A DNA stretch of 64,000 nt, from positions 2,688,001-2,752,000 of the forward strand of contig CAVQMM010000001.1 of NCBI GenBank assembly GCA_963713615.1, read 5' to 3'. The position numbers and the translations under genes are program-made. Origin of the DNA: an uncultured Chlamydiae bacterium. GTDB taxonomy: Bacteria; Chlamydiota; Chlamydiia; Chlamydiales; JAJFMA01. This document shows positions 8,130 through 62,278 of this stretch, piece by piece; position 1 is the stretch's first letter, and every line of letters starts with the position of its first letter. Below the pieces are notes generated by a model. That model did no database searches. It saw only the letters and a list, made by a program, of their open reading frames with translations, and had not been told where the DNA came from.

Positions 8130-9103
8130 AATAGGATTTTTACCACAGAGAACGCCGAGATAGAAGAGAGAAGAAAGGAAAGAAAAGGACAAATGGTTCA
8201 TCCGGTTTTGTAGGACTTGACTACACAGGCAGGCGTGAGCCCAAAAACATGATTCATAGGATATGAGGTAATTGCAGAAGTCCGATTTTCCGAAGTCAAT
8301 TTCCTGAAAATCGGATGCCGGTGAAGAGAGAGTCATTCCCTTCCGAGGCCCGAAGGGTCGATATTGCAACAGGCCATGGCATCGCCACATAGGCCTCAAC
8401 CTAAGCCTAACAATCGTATCTCGGCGCGCAGCGCTTTGGAGTGCGGTCGCTTGCGACCGCTTTGGGTTCCTTGCGACGGTCGTGTGCAACGGCATCACTA
8501 TAATTCCCTAAGGGTAAAATAGTTAGTACATGCAGCCTTCGACGAATCCATACAATGCCGTTTAGCATTGCCGTCCCAAGGAACGAAAAGCGGTCGCAAG
8601 CGACCGCACTCCAAAGCGCTGCGCGCCGAGATACGATTGTGAAGTCCTAAGTCATTGAGATATAAGCTCAAAAGACCTGTTAGGTTGAGGCCTATGTGGC
8701 ATCGCCATGGTATATGCCAAAACGGTTTTAGCAGCCTGTAGGGCTGCCATAAAGCGCATGCATAAATGGTGTTTGTAAACTGGCGTCTTGTAGCAGTCCT
8801 TCAGACTGCGAAATCCCTTCCTGGCATATACCATGGCCTGTTGCAATATCGACCCTTCGGGCCTGGGAAGGGAGTTTCCAGACTGGATAATGCCATACCA
8901 CTTAAGCTCTCCAGAATCGCCTTCTCACAAAAAAAAGTGATTTTTTTTCAAAGAATCGATCCATGAGAGCCCAAATACTTCTGCAATTACCTCATATGGA
9001 CATCTATTAAACAATAAACAAAAACCATTCGATTTTTCTTCTCCTTCCTCTTCCCTTTCCTCTTTCTCTCCTATCTCGGCGTTCTCTGTAGTAAAATCCT
9101 ATT
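8130..9103. repeat. Nested inverted-repeat composite, copy 1
   Basis: Outer AGGATTTTTACCACAGAG...GAGATAG inverted pair. Inside it, perfect 17-bp TIR GAGGTAATTGCAGAAGT (8265) / ACTTCTGCAATTACCTC (ends 8993), flanked by ATAT, then further IR layers. Related copies at 36908, 61372 and 12208. Confidence 0.9.
8388..8696 (+). mobile_element. 309-bp non-autonomous element (IS4/IS231-like MITE) carrying a REP-like hairpin doublet
   Basis: TIR CATAGGCCTCAACCTAA/TTAGGTTGAGGCCTATG; 11-bp direct repeat TGGCATCGCCA at 8377-8387 and 8697-8707. Confidence 0.85.
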
Positions 9104-9429: not shown

Positions 9430-10821
9430 ATGCACATTCGTACACTTAGTATCATTCTTGCTTGGGCCACTTCAGCACTTTGTGCCGATTGGCGGCCAGA
9501 CATCTACATCTATTCCGACTTTGGAGGAGGGCAAAACCATGCCCATGAGCCAATTGCTGACTGGCAGACAGCCATTGAATTAGCAGAAGAGGGCTGGAAG
9601 CTGACTCATCATCCAAAAATTTTCATCAACGACGCAGCAACCCCGCTTCATCCTCAAAGAGCTGCAGGTCAAGTCGCGGCAACCTTTCCTTATTTGGGCC
9701 CAAAGGAGACCTCGACGATTGAACGCATTGTCGTTCACGTGGTGGATCCTTCGGTCGGCAATGCAAGTCAGCATCGACGGGCATTAGTTTTGCGCCGCGA
9801 TGGAACTCTGTTCATCGGTCCCGATAATGGAACTTTGAGCGCAGCATGCCCACCCGGTTCGCTAGCGATGATCTGGGAGATCGATATCCCACGTCTCAGC
9901 GCTTCGACGGGTCTAGATGTAGCGGCAGGAGGAACCTTTCATGGACGCGACGTCTTCGCAGCAGCAGGATACCTTTTATCCGCTGGACGTTTATCACCTG
10001 AAGACATTGGCAAGCCCTATCAAACGGCTGAGTTGGCCGTCCGTGTTTCTCCAATAGGGGAGAGTTCTAAATGCATCACTTTTCAAGAGCTTCCCACAAC
10101 ACGATGGATGTTAGAGGTGGGTTCGGACTCGTTATTCTCCGACGCCTATTTCTTAGCTATCGTACAGTCACCCCTCTATGTTGATGCTTCGCATGCACAG
10201 CTATTTATCGTAGATGACCGCACGTTGACCGAACGTGTAGCCATACTGAACCGCAAAACCCAGAATCTTTATATCGGGCCCAACAATGGCTTGGGAACAG
10301 GTTTCTTTATGGGATTTGATAAAGAGGATATTTGGATGGCTGAAGTATCCCAGGCCGTTTATGAGATAATCAAGGCTACTTCAAATGTCGCTCTGGTACG
10401 TGACCTCATTTTTAGACAGCCCAGGTTTAAGGAGGAGCTGGTTGTGGTGGACCTGCTAGCCAGAGAAAATGAGAGTAAACATATCTCAGGACACGTGTGG
10501 GCAGATGCCTATGGCAATCTCAAAACAACTCTTGATAGTGAGTTATATCAAAGCTTAATCGATGAAGGTTACACCAATTTAACCGTTGCACTGAATGGAG
10601 TATCCAAACAGGTGCGTATAGCAGACTCTTTTGCTGATGTCCCTGCAGGGACTCCGTTCGCCTATGTGGGCAGCTCTGGAGCTGTAGGACCAAATCCGCA
10701 CCGTTCTCGTCGTTATGTCGAATTGACTACCAATGGCATCAACGGGCAATTCGGGGTTGATCTATTTGATAATCCCCAATCTGGACAAGTCATCGAATTT
10801 TATTTTACAAAAAACATTTAA
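9430..10821 (+). CDS. SAM hydrolase/SAM-dependent halogenase (DUF62) family protein with predicted signal peptide
   Basis: YSDFG, HVVDPSVG, FIGPDNG, TFHGRDVFA, DAYGNLKT motifs; N-terminus MHIRTLSIILAWATSALCA. Confidence 0.8.
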   Translation: MHIRTLSIILAWATSALCADWRPDIYIYSDFGGGQNHAHEPIADWQTAIELAEEGWKLTHHPKIFINDAATPLHPQRAAGQVAATFPYLGPKETSTIERIVVHVVDPSVGNASQHRRALVLRRDGTLFIGPDNGTLSAACPPGSLAMIWEIDIPRLSASTGLDVAAGGTFHGRDVFAAAGYLLSAGRLSPEDIGKPYQTAELAVRVSPIGESSKCITFQELPTTRWMLEVGSDSLFSDAYFLAIVQSPLYVDASHAQLFIVDDRTLTERVAILNRKTQNLYIGPNNGLGTGFFMGFDKEDIWMAEVSQAVYEIIKATSNVALVRDLIFRQPRFKEELVVVDLLARENESKHISGHVWADAYGNLKTTLDSELYQSLIDEGYTNLTVALNGVSKQVRIADSFADVPAGTPFAYVGSSGAVGPNPHRSRRYVELTTNGINGQFGVDLFDNPQSGQVIEFYFTKNI

Positions 10822-12192: not shown

Positions 12193-12371
12193 CAACGAAT
12201 ACACACGCAAAACGGTTTTAGCAGCCTGTAGGGCTGCCATAAAGCGCATGCATAAATGGTGTTTGTAAACTGGCATCTTGTAGAAGTCCTTCAGACTGCG
12301 AAATCCCTTCCTGGCATATACCATGGCGATGCCATGGCCTGTTGCAATATCGACCCTTCTACCATAGGATT

Positions 12372-12580
12372 TTGCAAACGATTATCGACGGTAATAGGAA
12401 AAGACAAAAAACATTTCTCTAAGGTATCATTTTGGCCGACGAAGGTGTGGCCGTGTGCCCTTAGCGAATGTTTGTTCGCCTGGCCCGATATGCCGCCTTC
12501 GTCGTTTGCATCATCCAATAATTCCGTTCGGGATGGTGCCAATCTTCTGATTGTGGCTCTGTAAGTAGAAGTGGAATTTG
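12372..12580 (+). ncRNA. Predicted IS110 bridge RNA (target-binding and donor-binding loops); 5' end approximate
   Basis: Stem 12437-45/12496-504 encloses CCCTT and GGCCCGA (target guides); stem 12520-25/12573-78 encloses CGGGATG and GTAGA (donor guides). Confidence 0.8.
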
Positions 12581-12622
12581 GGTGAAATTTAACGCTCACA
12601 AACACTTAACAGGGCATTTATC

Positions 12623-13819
12623 ATGCAAAATCAGTCCGAACTTCGTATTTGTCTAGATATCGGTAGCGTTCGACACTATGTAGCCATAGGCTTGTCCACA
12701 GGAGAACGCATCGATGGATTTTATCTAAACCACACTTCTGAAGACATTGAGCAGTTTTTTGAGAAAATTGAGAAGCTTAGAATTTCCTATAACATGCCTG
12801 TTGTCATGGCTATGGAGGGGTTTAATGGCTATGCTAGACCCATCGATAGATATGCTCTTGATCACGGATATTCTTTGTATAGTGTCAACAACATGAAATT
12901 GGCTAGATTTAAGGAAGTTTTTCCTGGTCCAGCCAAAACAGATCCAATTGACGCTTGGGCTATTTTTAGCTTGTTTCAAGTTCAAGAGACCTTACCGTTG
13001 GCAAAAAATATTCTGCAGAAAGTAGAGCCTCCACCGGTATGCAACGAGCAACTTAAACATATTTCAAGGCGTCGTAGAGAGTTGGTAAAAGAAAAGACAA
13101 GAATCATAAATCGACTTCAAGGGGATCTACAGGCTGTTTGCCCCGGTCTACTGTCTATTACAAAAAATCCAGCAAATCTTTGGTTTCTACGATTTCTTGC
13201 TTCGAAGGAAGACATGACCATGTTGCTTCGAATGCAAAAAAGAAGCCTGTTGCAAATCAAGGGCGTTGGAGAGGTTTATGCAGAGGAAATTCAGAAATGG
13301 CAAAAGACGGCTAAGTTCTCTTCAAAGGTTGAGTGGATAGGAAAATTAATAGTACGAGATGTCAGAAGGCTACTCGAGATGCTAGATGAAATAGCGCAGT
13401 TGGAGGTATTGATAGAGGGTTTGATCCCACAATCCAAGATAGCATCTCGGATTGAATCTATTCCTGGATATGGTTCCATTTGTGCCGCAGAACTCGCTGG
13501 AGAGATTGGTAGTATCGATCGGTTTAAGTCGGAGGCTAGTCTAGCGCTCTACTTGGGAATAGGAATTCTGAACAAGAGTTCTGGCCAATATGAGGGGTCT
13601 CGATCGCCTCGAAATATTAACTGGAGGGGAAAGGGAGCTATGATGACCGGAGCTGCTCGACATATACAACTATGTGATGAGGCTGCACAGTACTACAAGA
13701 AGAAGAGAGCAGAGGGAAAAAAACATAACCAAGCAGTACGAGCATTTGCCCGTCATATGATAAGAGTAATATGGTCGATACTCATACATGACAGGGATTA
13801 CCGTCAGAAGGAAGACTGA
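12623..13819 (+). CDS. IS110-family recombinase/transposase (DEDD RuvC-like plus Tnp20 domain)
   Basis: CLDIG, AMEG, KTDPIDA (DEDD); SIPGYG, F.SEASLA.YLG, NKSSG (candidate catalytic Ser), YYKKKRAEGKKHNQA. Confidence 0.95.
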   Translation: MQNQSELRICLDIGSVRHYVAIGLSTGERIDGFYLNHTSEDIEQFFEKIEKLRISYNMPVVMAMEGFNGYARPIDRYALDHGYSLYSVNNMKLARFKEVFPGPAKTDPIDAWAIFSLFQVQETLPLAKNILQKVEPPPVCNEQLKHISRRRRELVKEKTRIINRLQGDLQAVCPGLLSITKNPANLWFLRFLASKEDMTMLLRMQKRSLLQIKGVGEVYAEEIQKWQKTAKFSSKVEWIGKLIVRDVRRLLEMLDEIAQLEVLIEGLIPQSKIASRIESIPGYGSICAAELAGEIGSIDRFKSEASLALYLGIGILNKSSGQYEGSRSPRNINWRGKGAMMTGAARHIQLCDEAAQYYKKKRAEGKKHNQAVRAFARHMIRVIWSILIHDRDYRQKED

Positions 13820-14408
13820 GTTAGTTTAGCAAACGGGCTTTGTTCTGTTTGGCCTGAATGAACAAGGTCAGCAAATTCGGCGATGTTAGCTGAGCAGAAA
13901 AGGAGCACGGCTACTCTGCTTCGGCAACCCCATAGGAGTTGTATACAACCTTCCTAAGTAAATTCACCGTGTCCCTTCGCAGTTGAAAGGAGCACGGCTA
14001 CTCTACTTCGGCTCTATAAATTTAGCAAAATTAGAAAATAATTAAAAGTTTCAAAACCGAAGGAATTGGCATCGAAAAATCGCCTGAAAGCTACGAAAAA
14101 TCTTGAAAAATTCTAGCGGGATGTCGGGCCTGGGAAGGGAGAAAAGCCTGTCTTTCCAGACTGGATAGTGCCATACCACTTAAGCTCTCTAGAATCGCCT
14201 TCTCACAAAAAAAGGTAACCTTTTTTCCCGAGAATCGATTCTCAAGGGCTCAAATAATTTTGCAATTACCTCAAAGGGACAAAAAGGACTCAGGAGGCAT
14301 ACTCTACAAGTCCTTTATGTCTTTTATGTTCCTTTGGTCCTTTAGTCCAGTCCATCCAAGAGCGACACGCACTTCTGAGGGCCTTGTGCATGCTATTCGC
14401 CCGGCACA

Positions 14409-15793: not shown

Positions 15794-16711
15794 CTAGTCA
15801 TTGGGCGGGGCGGTTTTTGTGATACTGAAGTCTAGCATGCTCAGGTCAACCTCGGCATTAGTCTGGTCTTGAAAGCGTTGCGCGAATTCACTGCTGGCGT
15901 CTTGAGCGGTCACGGCACCTTGGTCAAGCTGCTGATAGAGTTCCTTACGCCGATCTATAATAGGCTGAGGGTCACGAAAAAGAGACTGCAACAGAGCCTT
16001 GCGAGCCAAAAACACACGAATCTTGGTCGGTTGTTGGCTCAGCATGACATAGTCCAATAGCGATGGATAACCATTATTTGTTTTGACTTCCTTGCCATGT
16101 TTGTCGACCGTGTAACTGGCCTTCTGCCCATTCAGCATGTTGTAGTACACCTCTCGAAGGTCTTCATCGATCAATGGAATGTTGGCGAGGTCTTTTTTGT
16201 TGGTAAATTTCAGTGGACAGGGCGCTTTAGTGATCGATTCGATCATTTGCCTGACAATGTCTTCAGATAGCTGTGGATGCGTTTTTAGGGCTTCTTTGTA
16301 AAAGCGCTTGTCACTATAAAGGTTTTCCATTATGCGCTGGAACACCTTTACCGTATCCCCCGCATTTGAAATAATAGACTGTGCATCCACGTTTTGCATA
16401 TTTGGCGTCACTTTACCTACAAGAGGATAGAGATTAAGCAGCGCAAAGGTGTTTTTGGGAGGAGGAGGGGGGGTAGGCGTTTGTCCTTGCGTGCTGGAAG
16501 AATCCGTCTTCTGTTGATTCGTCGACTGCTTAGCCCTTGTTGTTTTGTATTTGCGTTCCTCAATAGAGTTCAAGGCATCGCGCTCTGAGTGGGCCATATA
16601 CTTTTCGTACTCAATGCGGACCCCGGCATTATCTAGATATGTCTGTAAACGCGTGTACGTGGTTATCGTCAGCAGGGTGAGGATAGTGAACACTAAAAGC
16701 AGGATATTCAT
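15794..16711 (-). CDS. Last gene of the chlamydial T2SS operon; single N-terminal TM, possibly GspK-like
   Basis: N-terminal hydrophobic helix; position after the pseudopilin genes. Confidence 0.55.
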   Translation of the reverse strand: MNILLLVFTILTLLTITTYTRLQTYLDNAGVRIEYEKYMAHSERDALNSIEERKYKTTRAKQSTNQQKTDSSSTQGQTPTPPPPPKNTFALLNLYPLVGKVTPNMQNVDAQSIISNAGDTVKVFQRIMENLYSDKRFYKEALKTHPQLSEDIVRQMIESITKAPCPLKFTNKKDLANIPLIDEDLREVYYNMLNGQKASYTVDKHGKEVKTNNGYPSLLDYVMLSQQPTKIRVFLARKALLQSLFRDPQPIIDRRKELYQQLDQGAVTAQDASSEFAQRFQDQTNAEVDLSMLDFSITKTAPPND

Positions 16712-16718
16712 GCTCTCC

Positions 16719-17531
16719 TCACGGAATGATAATCGGTTTTTTTGAGTTGGGAAGGGGATAAGCTAGGACAATGGGTTCTGAAGGAGGCACCAGCCCGGTT
16801 TGTACGCTGCGTTTGAGGCTGATCTTGACTACTACAGGTAGTTCTCCATAAGCCATCTTCCAATTGTCTACCCACTGATCCCGAGGAGGCGTTTCCTTAG
16901 GCGTTGTAGGGGTCGTATTCTGCTGTTGCTGCTGATTGTCTATGTTATTTTGGTTAGACTGACCATTTGCATTGCTTTGGTTAGACTGATTGTCTTGCTG
17001 ATTCTCTTGCACTGTAGGACTAAAAAATTGATAACTTATGTCAGTAACTTTGCTGATGAGTATTTCCTTCTTCATCGGAGGTGGAAAGGTCCCTTTTGTG
17101 CAGCGAGGAACAGGCCATGTCAGAAGAACCAGACTACTTTCACCGTTTCTACTTTCGACCAAAAGCCTGCCCAAAACATGATTACAGAAGGCTGGGTCAA
17201 TATCGATTCCATTGTCGTAGGTAAATACAAGACTGGGCCCTTCTACACCTGACTCTAGATTGGTACTGGTATAAAAATAGAAATCATTTTTCTTTTCCGT
17301 TTCTTTGGTAGGTGGCTTAGCAGATATGGCAGAGGGGATGACCTGAGCTAATCGCGCTTCGAGATAACGCAGCTCAAAGCTCTCGTCGCGGGCTCGATCA
17401 ATCTGTCCATGCAGAAACTCGATCTGGCTGTAATAGCCCATTAGCACTGTCATGAGGATAGAGATAAGCCCCATGGCGATCATCACTTCGATGAGAGTGA
17501 CATACTGGCGGCGGTTAACCATTCTCCTCAT
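16719..17531 (-). CDS. T2SS minor pseudopilin (GspJ-like)
   Basis: Prepilin-type N-terminus RRQY-VTLIEVMIAM; Q/N-rich loop. Confidence 0.75.
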   Translation of the reverse strand: MRRMVNRRQYVTLIEVMIAMGLISILMTVLMGYYSQIEFLHGQIDRARDESFELRYLEARLAQVIPSAISAKPPTKETEKKNDFYFYTSTNLESGVEGPSLVFTYDNGIDIDPAFCNHVLGRLLVESRNGESSLVLLTWPVPRCTKGTFPPPMKKEILISKVTDISYQFFSPTVQENQQDNQSNQSNANGQSNQNNIDNQQQQQNTTPTTPKETPPRDQWVDNWKMAYGELPVVVKISLKRSVQTGLVPPSEPIVLAYPLPNSKKPIIIP

Positions 17532-17997
17532 CCTCTTTTTCCTCTACATTGGGTGTGCGCTGGATAAACAGATCGTAATTGTAGACTATCGGCGTACCGC
17601 CGAGAGATGAGTTGAAGGTAAAGGTTATTTTGAGCAAATCCAGAGGGCTATCCGCCTGTTCTTCTTGCTTTTTGGGAAGTCGTACCGCCGTCATGTAAGA
17701 GCCCGTATACCCTAGCCTGGTCAATTCCGGGCTATCCAGAGGATTAGGTCGTCCTGAAGTGATATCCTCCCAAGTAATAGGAGGAGAGCGATAAAAGCGA
17801 TTGACAAGCAGGTCACAGTAGAGCACATTGGCTACCCTGTCTAGCTCAACTTCACGGATGAAACGCTTCTCCTCCATCAGCATCGCAAGGTGAGGCTGCA
17901 GCATCGGCACGATGCAGACCAAGACGATACCAAGGGCTATGAGTACTTCAAGGAGTAGGAAGTGGCGTTTACGTACTCTGCTGATTTCCCTGCTCAT
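17515..17997 (-). CDS. T2SS minor pseudopilin (GspI-like)
   Basis: RKRH-FLLLEVLIAL prepilin motif; overlaps both neighbours. Confidence 0.75.
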   Translation of the reverse strand: MSREISRVRKRHFLLLEVLIALGIVLVCIVPMLQPHLAMLMEEKRFIREVELDRVANVLYCDLLVNRFYRSPPITWEDITSGRPNPLDSPELTRLGYTGSYMTAVRLPKKQEEQADSPLDLLKITFTFNSSLGGTPIVYNYDLFIQRTPNVEEKEDEENG

Positions 17998-18781
17998 TTC
18001 TCTTTAGCTCTTCTTCACGTACTTCACGGGGATATAGTTGCGAAAGGTCCTCCGGGAACTCTCCGCCCTTCTGGATCTGTTGGTTGCTGGGCTCTCCTAT
18101 TTCTATGGGACTTGGATAACCCGATAAAAAGATCTGCCTACGAGCAGCGCTGGCGTTGCTCAATTTGTCCTCGCTGATCAAAAGGCTTCCCGATGTCATT
18201 TTGCCCCCACCGGAAAGAAAGTCCAAGGTCACGTTGTTCGTAGACGTTTTCCCTTGAAGATCGGTAAACTGAAAATCCTTGATTCCAACGACAATAATGG
18301 GCTGACCACTAGCAGCAGCAAGAGCTGGGGTAAGCCCTCCCTCCGCCAGGAGGGTAACTTGCAACCCCTTATCTTGCTGCTCTAACTTGACTCGAACGCT
18401 AGTGCGGAGGATGAGCATGATGTCCTGCGCCAAGCGTAATTTATCGACCAACAACGTACCACTCGCGCGAAAGCGCTCAGTCTGTACAGCGGTGCCAATT
18501 CCAACGCCGACAATCCCCAAAATCATCATCAACATACCCATGACGATCAGAAGTTCAATCAGTGTCAGGTATACCACGCGCGCTCTAAATTGGCGATTTT
18601 GTGGCACGCCAAAGCCCCGGGGTTGGACGATCTCAAGTCGCCCAATATTAGAAATATGGGGTGACTTGCGATCGTCCAACCGCGGAAGCTTTCGCGCACC
18701 ACAAAATCGCAAATTTAAAGCGCGCGTGGTATCACGTCGGACCGGAGCTCTTTCTGTACTACTTCGTCTTTTCGTATGCAT
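17969..18781 (-). CDS. T2SS minor pseudopilin (GspH-like) with a palindromic insert in the leader
   Basis: YLTLIELLIVMGML prepilin helix; start codon uncertain because of the insert. Confidence 0.7.
   Translation of the reverse strand: MHTKRRSSTERAPVRRDTTRALNLRFCGARKLPRLDDRKSPHISNIGRLEIVQPRGFGVPQNRQFRARVVYLTLIELLIVMGMLMMILGIVGVGIGTAVQTERFRASGTLLVDKLRLAQDIMLILRTSVRVKLEQQDKGLQVTLLAEGGLTPALAAASGQPIIVVGIKDFQFTDLQGKTSTNNVTLDFLSGGGKMTSGSLLISEDKLSNASAARRQIFLSGYPSPIEIGEPSNQQIQKGGEFPEDLSQLYPREVREEELKRNEQGNQQST
18571..18732. repeat. 162-bp imperfect palindrome inside the pseudopilin ORF
   Basis: ATACCACGCGCGCT...AGCGCGCGTGGTAT ends; inner TTGGACGATC.CAAGTC / GACTTG.GATCGTCCAA arms. Confidence 0.9.
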
Positions 18782-19148
18782 CTAAACGATCCGACCGCAC
18801 CACAATGAGATTATTGCCGTCAGCAGATTGCTCCACAGTTACCTTAAATTCATTGCCCCAGCCGTCATTGACCATTTTGTCAGGGTTGACAACGAGAGGT
18901 GAAGACTTAATATAGTCCTTCCACTTAGAGGGAAGATCATCGATCGCTGAAGGATCGTTGGCTATTTTGAGAGTAAGGATGGTACGGATTTTCTCAATGT
19001 TCGCTTTAGTCTCAAAGGCACGACCTTCTTCAAGGGCTCCTTGGTAGTTATAGGCAACGACACCGAGGATCATGGCAATGAGTGTCATAACAATCATGAT
19101 CTCGATCAGTGTTATATAGTGGCGAGTCGACTTCCAAACGGTTTTCAT
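18759..19148 (-). CDS. gspG: T2SS major pseudopilin
   Basis: HY-ITLIEIMIVMTLIAMILG, DGWGNEF; directly after gspF. Confidence 0.75.
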   Translation of the reverse strand: MKTVWKSTRHYITLIEIMIVMTLIAMILGVVAYNYQGALEEGRAFETKANIEKIRTILTLKIANDPSAIDDLPSKWKDYIKSSPLVVNPDKMVNDGWGNEFKVTVEQSADGNNLIVVRSDRLDAYEKTK

Positions 19149-36907: not shown

Positions 36908-37597
36908 GAGGTAATTGCAGAAGTCCGATTTCCGAAGTCAATTCCTGAAACTCGAATACAATCGAAGAGAGAGAGAAGCGATTCCCTTCCTAGGCCCGAA
37001 GGGTCGATATTGCAACAGGCCAGGGCATCGCCCCATAGGCCTCAACCTAAGCCTAACAATCGTATCTCGGCGCGCAGCGCTTTGGAGTGCGGTCGCTTGC
37101 GACCGCTTTGGGTTCCTTGCGACGGTCGTGTGCAACGGCATTACTATAATTCCCTAAGGGTAAAATAGTTAGTACATGCAGCCTTCGACGAATCCATACA
37201 ATGCCGTTTAGCATTGCCGTCCCAAGGAACGAAAAGCGGTCGCAAGCGACCGCACTCCAAAGCGCTGCGCGCCGAGATACGATTGTGAAGTCCTAAGTCA
37301 TTGAGATATAAGCTCAAAAGACCTGTTAGGTTGAGGCCTATGGGGCATCGCCCTGGTATACGCCAGGATAGGGTTTCGCAGTCTGAAAGACTGCCACAAG
37401 ATGCCGGTTTGCACACACCATTTATGCATGCTTTCTATGGCAGTCCTTCGAGGCTGACAGGAAATATCCCTTGGCCTGTTGCAATATCGACCCTTCGGGC
37501 CTAGGAGGGAGTAAGGGCCTGTGTCTCCAGGCCAGATAGTGCCATGCCATCTGAGTTCTCTAGAATTGCCTTCTCGCAAAAAAAGGTAACATTTTTT
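36908..37597. repeat. Nested composite repeat, copy 2 (diverged host, right TIR missing)
   Basis: GAGGTAATTGCAGAAGT start; same layers as copy 1, with the second module inverted. Confidence 0.88.
37034..37342 (+). mobile_element. 309-bp IS231-like MITE, copy 2
   Basis: Same TIRs; 11-bp TSD GGGCATCGCCC. Confidence 0.87.
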
Positions 37598-61254: not shown

Positions 61255-62278
61255 TAGGATTTTTACCACAGAGGACACAGAGTGCTCTGAGATAGGAGAG
61301 AGAGGAGGGATTTATTTTTTTTTATTTAATAGATGCCCATGGGGTCCATTAGTGTCCATGCTGTCCATTAAGAGGTAATTGCAGAAGTCCGATTCTCCGA
61401 ATTCAATTTCCTGAAAATCGGATGCCGGTGAAGAGAGAGTCATTCCCTTCCCAGGCCCGAAGGGTCGATATTGCAACAGGCCATGGCATCGCCACATAGG
61501 CCTCAACCTAACAGGTCTTTTGAGCTTATATCTCAATGACTTAGGACTTCACAATCGTATCTCGGCGCGCAGCGCTTTGGAGTGCGGTCGCTTGCGACCG
61601 CTTTTCGTTCCTTGGGACGGCAATGCTAAACGGCATTGTATGGATTCGTCGAAGGCTGCATGTACTAACTATTTTACCCTTAGGGAATTATAGTGATGCC
61701 GTTGCACACGACCGTCGCAAGGAACCCAAAGCGGTCGCAAGCGACCGCACTCCAAAGCGCTGCGCGCCGAGATACGATTGTTAGGCTTAGGTTGAGGCCT
61801 ATGTGGCATCGCCATGGTATATGCCAAAACGGTTTTAGCAGCCTGTAGGGCTGCCATAAAGCGCATGCATAAATGGTGTTTGTAAACTGGCGTCTTGTAG
61901 CAGTCCTTCAGACTGCGAAATCCCTTCCTGGCATATACCATGGCGATGCCATGGCCTGTTGCAATATCGACCCTTCGGGCCTGGGAAGGGAGAAAAGCCT
62001 GTCTTTCCAGACTGGATAGTGCCATACCACTTAAGCTCTCTAGAATCGCCTTCTCACAAAAAAAGGTAACCTTTTTTCCCGAGAATCGATTCTCAAGGGC
62101 TCAAATAATTTTGCAATTACCTCATTAATGTCCATTTTTTCTGAAGCAAAAATGGACTTTATAGACAGTAATTGACCTTATAAACATTTATTAAACAAAA
62201 AAAATAAAAAACCTATCCAATGTTTCCTTCTTTTCTCCTATCTCTGTGCACTCTGTGTCCTCTGCGGTAAAAATCTTA
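61255..62278. repeat. Nested composite repeat, copy 3 (GAGGTAATTGC element 61372-62123)
   Basis: Outer ACCACAGAGGACACAGAG pair, about 9-bp-periodic GTCCAT repeats, TIR element flanked by ATTAA. Confidence 0.9.
61495..61803 (-). mobile_element. 309-bp IS231-like MITE, copy 3, opposite orientation
   Basis: Reverse complement of 8388-8696 within same-orientation flanks; TSD TGGCATCGCCA. Confidence 0.88.

Follow-up and report, generated by a model that had tools for sequence, protein, structure and literature searches.

A TC-core IS110-group element with a predicted bridge RNA, probably guided to a host repeat, in a chlamydial genome

The window, a 64,000-nucleotide stretch of the 3.97-Mb genome of an uncultured Chlamydiae bacterium, contains an IS110-group element inserted in a copy of a REP-like host repeat. 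The chlamydial host, which an earlier note on this DNA had considered probable, is supported by an OmcB-type protein that scored above the Pfam Chlam_OMP6 cut-off (46.4 versus 34.1 bits), and this DNA was found in peat and soil runs. The parts of the element and of the interrupted repeat are as follows.

12210..12357, plus strand: left part of the host repeat, comprising the linker, the hairpin, and the left target CGACCCT
12358..12359, plus strand: left TC core, present in 9 of 9 copies
12360..14123, plus strand: IS110-group element between the cores, 1764 bp
12360..12365, plus strand: right donor, which would also serve as the -10 box (TACCAT) of a putative circle-junction promoter
12365..12377, plus strand: left arm of a subterminal inverted repeat that matches at 11 of 13 positions
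12623..13819, plus strand: IS110 recombinase of 398 amino acids, with D12, E65, D107, D110, and S320
13820..14123, plus strand: right non-coding end of 304 bp; the copies of a 27-nt direct repeat occupy 13899-13925 and 13986-14012
14103..14115, plus strand: right arm of the imperfect inverted repeat, holding the predicted -35 box TTGAAA (14103-08)
14117..14123, plus strand: left donor CGGGATG, one T shorter than all 69 parsed homologue ends
14124..14125, plus strand: right TC core, present in 9 of 9 copies
14126..14272, plus strand: right target GGGCC, followed by the remainder of the host repeat as far as its outer boundary

The 3.97-Mb genome carries nine copies of the element, eight with a full-length gene and one whose gene is split by an insertion. 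The seven uninterrupted copies differ at 0-1 of 1764 bases, indicating that the element has spread recently; the other two hold insertions. All nine copies lie in a single orientation at the same base of the repeat, and their left ends read CCCT-TC-TAC and their right ends GGGATG-TC-GGGC without exception. The TC core proposed in the earlier note was thus found at all 18 junctions and in the empty site, and the empty target that it had given was counted, as an unoccupied 12-mer, 258 times in the genome. The hallmarks of IS110 (no terminal inverted repeat or target duplication, a short core at both ends, and site specificity) are apparent across the nine copies and approximately 260 empty sites. 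One of the two interrupted copies (C1:1751104-1755709) has a multi-copy insertion of approximately 2.9 kb in its right end, with a 524-amino-acid ORF that we take to be IS66-like. The other (C1:3547221-3552230) has a multi-copy insertion of approximately 3.3 kb inside the gene, with ORFs of 498 and 274 amino acids that are presumably IS21-like.

The assignment of the protein to the IS110 recombinases was supported, with both PF01548 and PF02371 above their cut-offs and NF033542 scoring 173.7 against a cut-off of 140 bits. The gene is intact and encodes the DEDD and serine residues. When the recombinase was aligned with 77 of 120 listed matches, D12, E65, and D110 were present in all 78 sequences, and D107 and S320 in 77. 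The structures that the predicted model (pLDDT 87) matched best were synaptic complexes of ISCro4 and IS621 (E 4e-12, TM 0.61, 16% identity); a single-sequence search against solved structures returned no match, whereas a profile search did. In the profile alignment, N68, which occurs in 77 of the 78 homologues, aligns to G63 of IS621.

The right non-coding end, at 304 bp, is approximately 10 times the homologue median of approximately 35 bp, most homologue right ends measuring 25-50 bp, and the copies of its 27-nt direct repeat are 87 bp apart. A second RNA in this end was considered and rejected, as the region had no Rfam match and folded no better than shuffled sequences (z = -0.9). A 16-mer of the direct repeat had five viral matches with unshared flanks, which look like chance. 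RNA-library contigs from two studies both end near position 14000, where a DNA contig continues, a weak hint of a transcript end.

The target site is concentrated in the host repeat. The pattern [AG]CCCT-TC-GGGC[CT] occurs at 271 sites in the genome, where base composition would predict 1.3, and 267 of these sites lie within the repeat. Among 291 repeat copies with up to five mismatches, 252 carry CGACCCT-TC-GGGCC and 14 carry a CTGCCCT variant. The target sites mostly form inverted pairs inside a larger nested repeat, and 260 sites form 145 clusters, of which 68 consist of one inverted pair, a feature that is REP/REPIN-like. At the window locus, the inverted partner copy that usually lies upstream of the linker is absent. 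Three further members of the repeat family occur in the window, at 8265-8993, 36908-37501, and 61372-62123. The repeats are nested, in that the inverted target repeats lie within an outer element that has inverted ends too and, in approximately 29 genome copies, the inner hairpin contains a second palindromic element, which itself contains a third. The approximately 260 copies in 3.97 Mb amount to a large lineage-specific expansion, including tandem arrays with a 473-bp period (e.g., C1:2273585-2277394). The repeat was not found in the 30 related genomes examined, many of which are fragmented assemblies.

At C1:3243391-3248552, a Y1 (IS200-like) gene is followed by approximately 10 inverted variant copies, one of which holds this IS110 element, and the repeat family likely originated here. 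The gene encodes a Y1 transposase of 150 amino acids and lies directly before the variant array; only one of six Y1 genes has repeat neighbours. By the NCBIfam models, the transposase scores as IS200-like and not as a RAYT, passing IS200 NF033573 (57.6 versus 55) and falling below REP_Tyr_transpos NF047646 (22.4 versus 80). An IS200 subgroup with abundant flanking repeats is described in PMC5581495, which we treat only as a lead for the Y1-array locus.

The left non-coding end of the element contains a predicted bridge RNA with two loops and four guides.

12372..12592, plus strand: predicted bridge RNA with putative ends, the start being placed by the putative junction promoter
12437..12504, plus strand: target-binding loop with its closing stem (12437-45/12496-504) and an inner hairpin at 12464-12479
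12453..12462, plus strand: left target guide GTGTGCCCT and core T, including CCCTT at 12458-62
12482..12488, plus strand: right target guide GGCCC and core-binding GA
12489..12490, plus strand: predicted target-loop handshake guide UA; once strands are exchanged, its partners would be donor G (by wobble) and T
12511..12585, plus strand: donor-binding loop with its closing stems (including 12520-25/12573-78)
12529..12537, plus strand: left donor guide CGGGATG (12529-35, identical to 14117-23), followed by G12536 (predicted bulge) and core T
12565..12569, plus strand: right donor guide GTA and core-binding GA
12570..12571, plus strand: predicted donor-loop handshake guide AG, the perfect complement of the target CT left of the core

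Each string and coordinate of the earlier note (the stems and the motifs CCCTT, GGCCCGA, CGGGATG, and GTAGA) was recovered in the sequence, as was the IS621-type arrangement that it proposed, a left end with two internal loops, each closed by a stem, and four guides in the known order. These strings are short (5-7 nt), and the left target string alone turned up in 18% of dinucleotide shuffles of the left end (the other three in 1.3%, 1.9%, and 0.5%), as would be expected if the matches were fortuitous and the left end were just a leader or promoter region. None of 20000 shuffles contained all four strings, the fourth having been lengthened in this test by the 2-nt handshake, a choice made after looking. 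Combined with the covariation of the scaffold and guides described below, this largely refutes chance, which we regard as having almost no prospect of being correct. The element RNA had no Rfam match. Folding, the check suggested in the earlier note, gave minimum-energy structures that pair parts of the guides and leave the loops not fully open (z = -2.7), whereas the comparison of homologues supports open loops; it is therefore from this comparison, and not from single-sequence folds, that the open-loop layout is taken. In two studies, RNA-library contigs span 12470-12743 at a depth of 2-4 and continue into the gene, and they are uninformative on ends, strand, and level. As the four RNA runs yielded only short low-depth contigs, they were left out of the support for the RNA.

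For the comparison, 83 rows were parsed, comprising the best 80 of 438 metagenome loci (47-56% identity), the chlamydial locus L101, the locus L007, and the window copy. They yielded 62 left junctions, 69 right junctions, and 70 target loops with patterns that demanded TC, so that homologues with another core would be missed. In 57 aligned left ends (of 66 parsed sequences, near-duplicates being omitted by eye), 94.5% of the scaffold cells were paired and 19 of 27 pairs showed two-sided changes, compared with 39-54% and 5-12 pairs in slid controls; the structure was derived from the same alignment on which it was scored, and 3 of the 30 consensus pairs were excluded from the covariation count because they lie on guide positions. 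The closing stem of the target loop was 99.8% paired in the 57 sequences, with two-sided changes at five of eight pairs.

The guides also varied with the DNA that they are predicted to read. Left guides agreed with their own left targets at 5.10 of 7 positions, versus 4.54 after shuffling (53 distinct pairs, 0/20000), and right guides with their right targets at 3.59 of 5, versus 2.81 (50 pairs, 0/20000). Both results hold without the window copy, and because the permutations ignore relatedness, their significance is overstated; L024, L047, L051, and L085, the anchors of which were mis-parsed, were excluded. Right-guide matches reached 7/7 in L056, 6/7 in L100, and 5/7 in L082, and L023 and L026 had GGTG and GGAG, respectively, in guide and site alike. 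The right-guide matches fade past 3-5 bases, and several elements (e.g., L094 and L074) lie in sites that mismatch their own guide. On the donor side, the right donor TAT occurred with the guide ATAGA in 4/4 cases and TAC with GTAGA in 56/56, and the left donor GGAATG occurred with the guide GGAATG in 5/5 and GGGATG with GGGATG in 53, with one mismatch (L048) in 59. All four guides thus vary with target or donor in the homologues, the behaviour on which the earlier note had made its reading depend.

The donor-side changes bear on another reading, in which only the target loop works, in a short seekRNA mode of the IS1111 type, and the protein recognises the ends via the subterminal repeat. Such a repeat does exist in the element (11 of 13 positions), and short RNAs suffice for ISEc11 according to PMC11187229. 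However, both donor guides show compensatory changes (4/4 and 5/5), the donor-loop stems covary, and the subterminal repeat (12365-77/14103-15) is weak across the clade, with a median of 8/13 in 52 elements versus 6.5 in shuffled sequences, making this reading highly improbable. The subterminal inverted repeats on which the earlier note remarked are present, although weaker than it implied, and because they are imperfect and weak across the 52 elements, they are probably not an IS1111-type hallmark. In PMC11187229, the IS1111 group (ISEc11 and IS4321) has a subterminal inverted repeat, as our element does, and a junction promoter of the kind predicted here, but its guide RNA usually lies in the right end and its repeat measures 7-17 bp. 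An assignment to this group was rejected, given the conserved RNA in the left end, the lack of a fold signal in the right end, and the weak repeat.

The handshake guides, the junction promoter, the slipped donor end, and the direction of change are additions beyond the earlier note. According to PMC11208158, the two bases after each right guide pair with partner DNA on the left side of the core. In the donor loop, the first such base is C with a target G in 60/60 homologues and A with T here, fitting in 61/61; in the target loop it is A with a donor T in 57/57 homologues and U with G here, fitting in 58/58, a figure that includes one wobble. The second handshake base fits in the window copy alone. 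Across the joined ends, a TTG/TTA hexamer is followed after 17 bp by a TAYCNT-type hexamer in 52 of 52 two-ended elements, and the distance from TTG to the core is 21 in 70/70 ends. The core is preceded by GATGT in 69/69 homologue right ends and by GATG in 9/9 copies here, and an extra A in the upstream A run of this element offsets the missing T, preserving the promoter spacing. With a donor end shortened in this way, the donor guide would need a one-base bulge or slip at G12536. The position is mismatched in relatives, and IS621 tolerates a mismatch at the corresponding position.

The same slippage could be read as a sign that the true crossover uses a shifted, mismatched, or one-base core, with left guides in the family spacing pointing to CT: in a gap-free alignment, the left target guide of the window element has CT where the homologues have TC, and one base is missing from the donor end of this element. 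A CT core, however, predicts junctions that were not observed, the junctions and the empty site all being TC; the core-binding GA is present in both right guides at the family spacing; and the donor-loop handshake has changed from C to A, exactly as the TC register requires. The CT alternative in any of these forms was consequently rejected as very unlikely, and the TC register is retained below.

The left target guide GTGTGCCCT is identical at 9 of 10 positions to the variant of the repeat that neighbours the Y1 transposase gene, and on the common variant one G:T wobble adjoins CCCT; the right target guide matches the common form exactly. G:T wobbles would thus let one RNA read both forms. 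The common repeat, matched by the left guide only at CCCT-T plus wobbles, nevertheless holds eight of the nine copies, and the better-matched variant is not significantly preferred (1/15 versus 8/260, p = 0.40). The repeat DNA, moreover, is predicted to fold into a hairpin that carries the core in its loop, and insertion of ISPpu10 is aided by a target stem-loop according to 10.64898/2026.03.19.712850. These observations would suit a reading in which specificity comes mainly from the protein or from the hairpin formed by the repeat DNA, with the RNA guides making only fine adjustments. In that same text, though, pairing is required for ISPpu10 and the hairpin merely enhances, and the homologue guides track unrelated sites, including a tRNA-like one (L096 and L100, judged by eye). 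We consider a predominantly protein- or hairpin-based specificity to be unlikely and favour guidance by the RNA.

In a FastTree phylogeny of the 83 proteins, rooted on the distant L008, the window copy was sister to the chlamydial L101 (0.99) and fell inside a six-member group (0.99), the other members of which have G-rich sites; it is thus nested among elements with G-rich guides. The element was likely retargeted from GGGG-TC-AG sites to the C-rich repeat, judging from the sequences of its relatives, and this putative retargeting entailed corresponding changes in the two target guides and the two handshakes. Among 400 genomes of the phylum there was one match, and among 60 related genomes none; viral contigs gave no relatives, and plasmids only matches with 25-27% identity. 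A search of named genomes with a single protein gave four loci and one useful right end. Empty sites were present in the short flanks of only 4 of 48 homologue loci, so that most homologue targets were reconstructed from junctions alone; in the one genome of these four that was searched in full, the empty site had no match. By eye, the guides of L096, L100, and L044 suit a site resembling the variable loop and T arm of a tRNA, and L096 and L100 are inserted at such a tRNA-like site. At 7 of 81 homologue loci (L030, L035, L042, L050, L072, L075, and L092), a motif search found near the insertion the start of a gene that we take to be Y1/RAYT-like, and the usual GGGG-TC-AGG site of the clade may accordingly be another transposase-associated repeat.

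Taken together, the element very probably moves by IS621-type bridge-RNA-guided recombination at the TC of the host repeat. Its ends would join at TC to form a circle, creating a predicted sigma-70 promoter (TTGAAA, 17 bp, TACCAT), from which an RNA of approximately 220 nt would be transcribed, starting near 12372. From the covariation, the first loop would pair with the bottom strand of the target left of the core and with its top strand right of the core, and the second loop would pair likewise with the donor, bottom strand left and top strand right. If the homology to IS621 holds for function, the recombinase would act as a tetramer (D12/E65/D107/D110 and S320) that cuts beside the core, and the handshake dinucleotides would then pair with the partner DNA, leading to strand exchange. 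The product of insertion has TC at both ends and a constant orientation. The element would have descended from relatives aimed at GGGG-TC-AG sites and been retargeted by the matched guide and handshake changes. The circular donor junction is predicted from the element ends, and abutted ends were absent from the assembly and from the contigs of four DNA runs, contigs being prone to drop rare forms. The nine near-identical copies are consistent with copy-out of the circle, and copy-type routes are favoured for IS110 elements in 10.64898/2026.08.31.748434 and 10.1101/2025.10.25.684509.

The element has much in common with IS621 as described in PMC11208160, PMC11208158, and PMC13626964 (PDB 8wt6 and 8wt9): the RuvC-like DEDD and Tnp serine protein, the left-end RNA (here predicted), the order of left target, right target, left donor, and right donor, the handshake dinucleotides after the right guides and the junction promoter (both likewise predicted here), the 2-nt core at both ends, and the REP-type target. 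It differs in that the proteins share only approximately 16% identity in a structural alignment, the recombinase here is approximately 70 amino acids longer, the right end is longer, and the donor end is one base short. In addition, IS621 nearly always has T at the second core position, read by G63, in contrast to the TC and the aligned N68 found here. ISCro4 (IS622; 10.1101/2025.05.14.653916; PDB 9t56) gave the best sequence-profile and fold match and has the same loop and handshake scheme as predicted here, but it has a CT core, is 88% identical to IS621, and is distant from this clade. Two Pseudomonas putida elements, ISPpu9 and ISPpu10 (PMC12288879; 10.64898/2026.03.19.712850), likewise belong to the IS110 group and occur in several copies within REP-like repeats, each flanked by a dinucleotide on either side; their cores are AG and CT, respectively, AG being CT on the other strand, which TC is not. 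Because the core is TC and not CT (NT) at 18/18 junctions, the element appears to work like IS621 but to lie outside the IS621/ISCro4 subgroup.

The cores given in the sources consulted are CT for IS621, IS622, and ISPpu10 and AG for ISPpu9, and the IS621 design tool advises against any core not ending in T. In the open-licence literature, the phrase "TC core" did not occur among the matches listed, nor did IS110 or bridge RNA together with chlamydial terms, and the available part of 10.64898/2026.08.14.744561 contained nothing on cores. The clade had already been sampled in the published IS110 tree of 1,054 sequences, as the unnamed proteins at rows 386 and 549 of Supplementary Table 1 of PMC11208160 carry its MEGYNG and NNLKLA motifs. 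The two rows have no ISfinder name, the supplement text searched gave no RNA, core, or target for them, and three RNA and end motifs had only unrelated matches in that text. The mechanism is already known, and the TC core is the useful difference of a clade without a name.

A more specific joint reading, to which we give slightly less than an even chance, is that the clade consists of bridge recombinases with a switched core preference, C at the second position, and that this copy documents a complete natural reprogramming, in which both handshakes changed and a bulge in the donor guide was tolerated. From the alignment with IS621, N68 is a possible cause of the TC preference. If this is true, there would be no cross-reaction with IS621/ISCro4 sites and TC-core targets would be opened, and the one-base bulge of the donor guide would relax the fixed guide-to-core spacing. 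A widespread TC-core clade with a readable RNA would widen the sites for programmable insertion, excision, and inversion, and a TC-core recombinase could run beside IS621 in one cell. As the handshakes and the guide-to-core spacing have changed naturally here, the element offers direct tests of both rules.

Two features elsewhere in the window are also worth recording. On the minus strand, 15794-19148 holds a cluster of genes that, by their N-terminal motif, are presumably pseudopilin-like genes of type II secretion. Finally, 9430-10821 encodes a protein of 463 amino acids, approximately twice the family length, with a weak match to (R)-S-adenosylmethionine hydrolase in its first half only.
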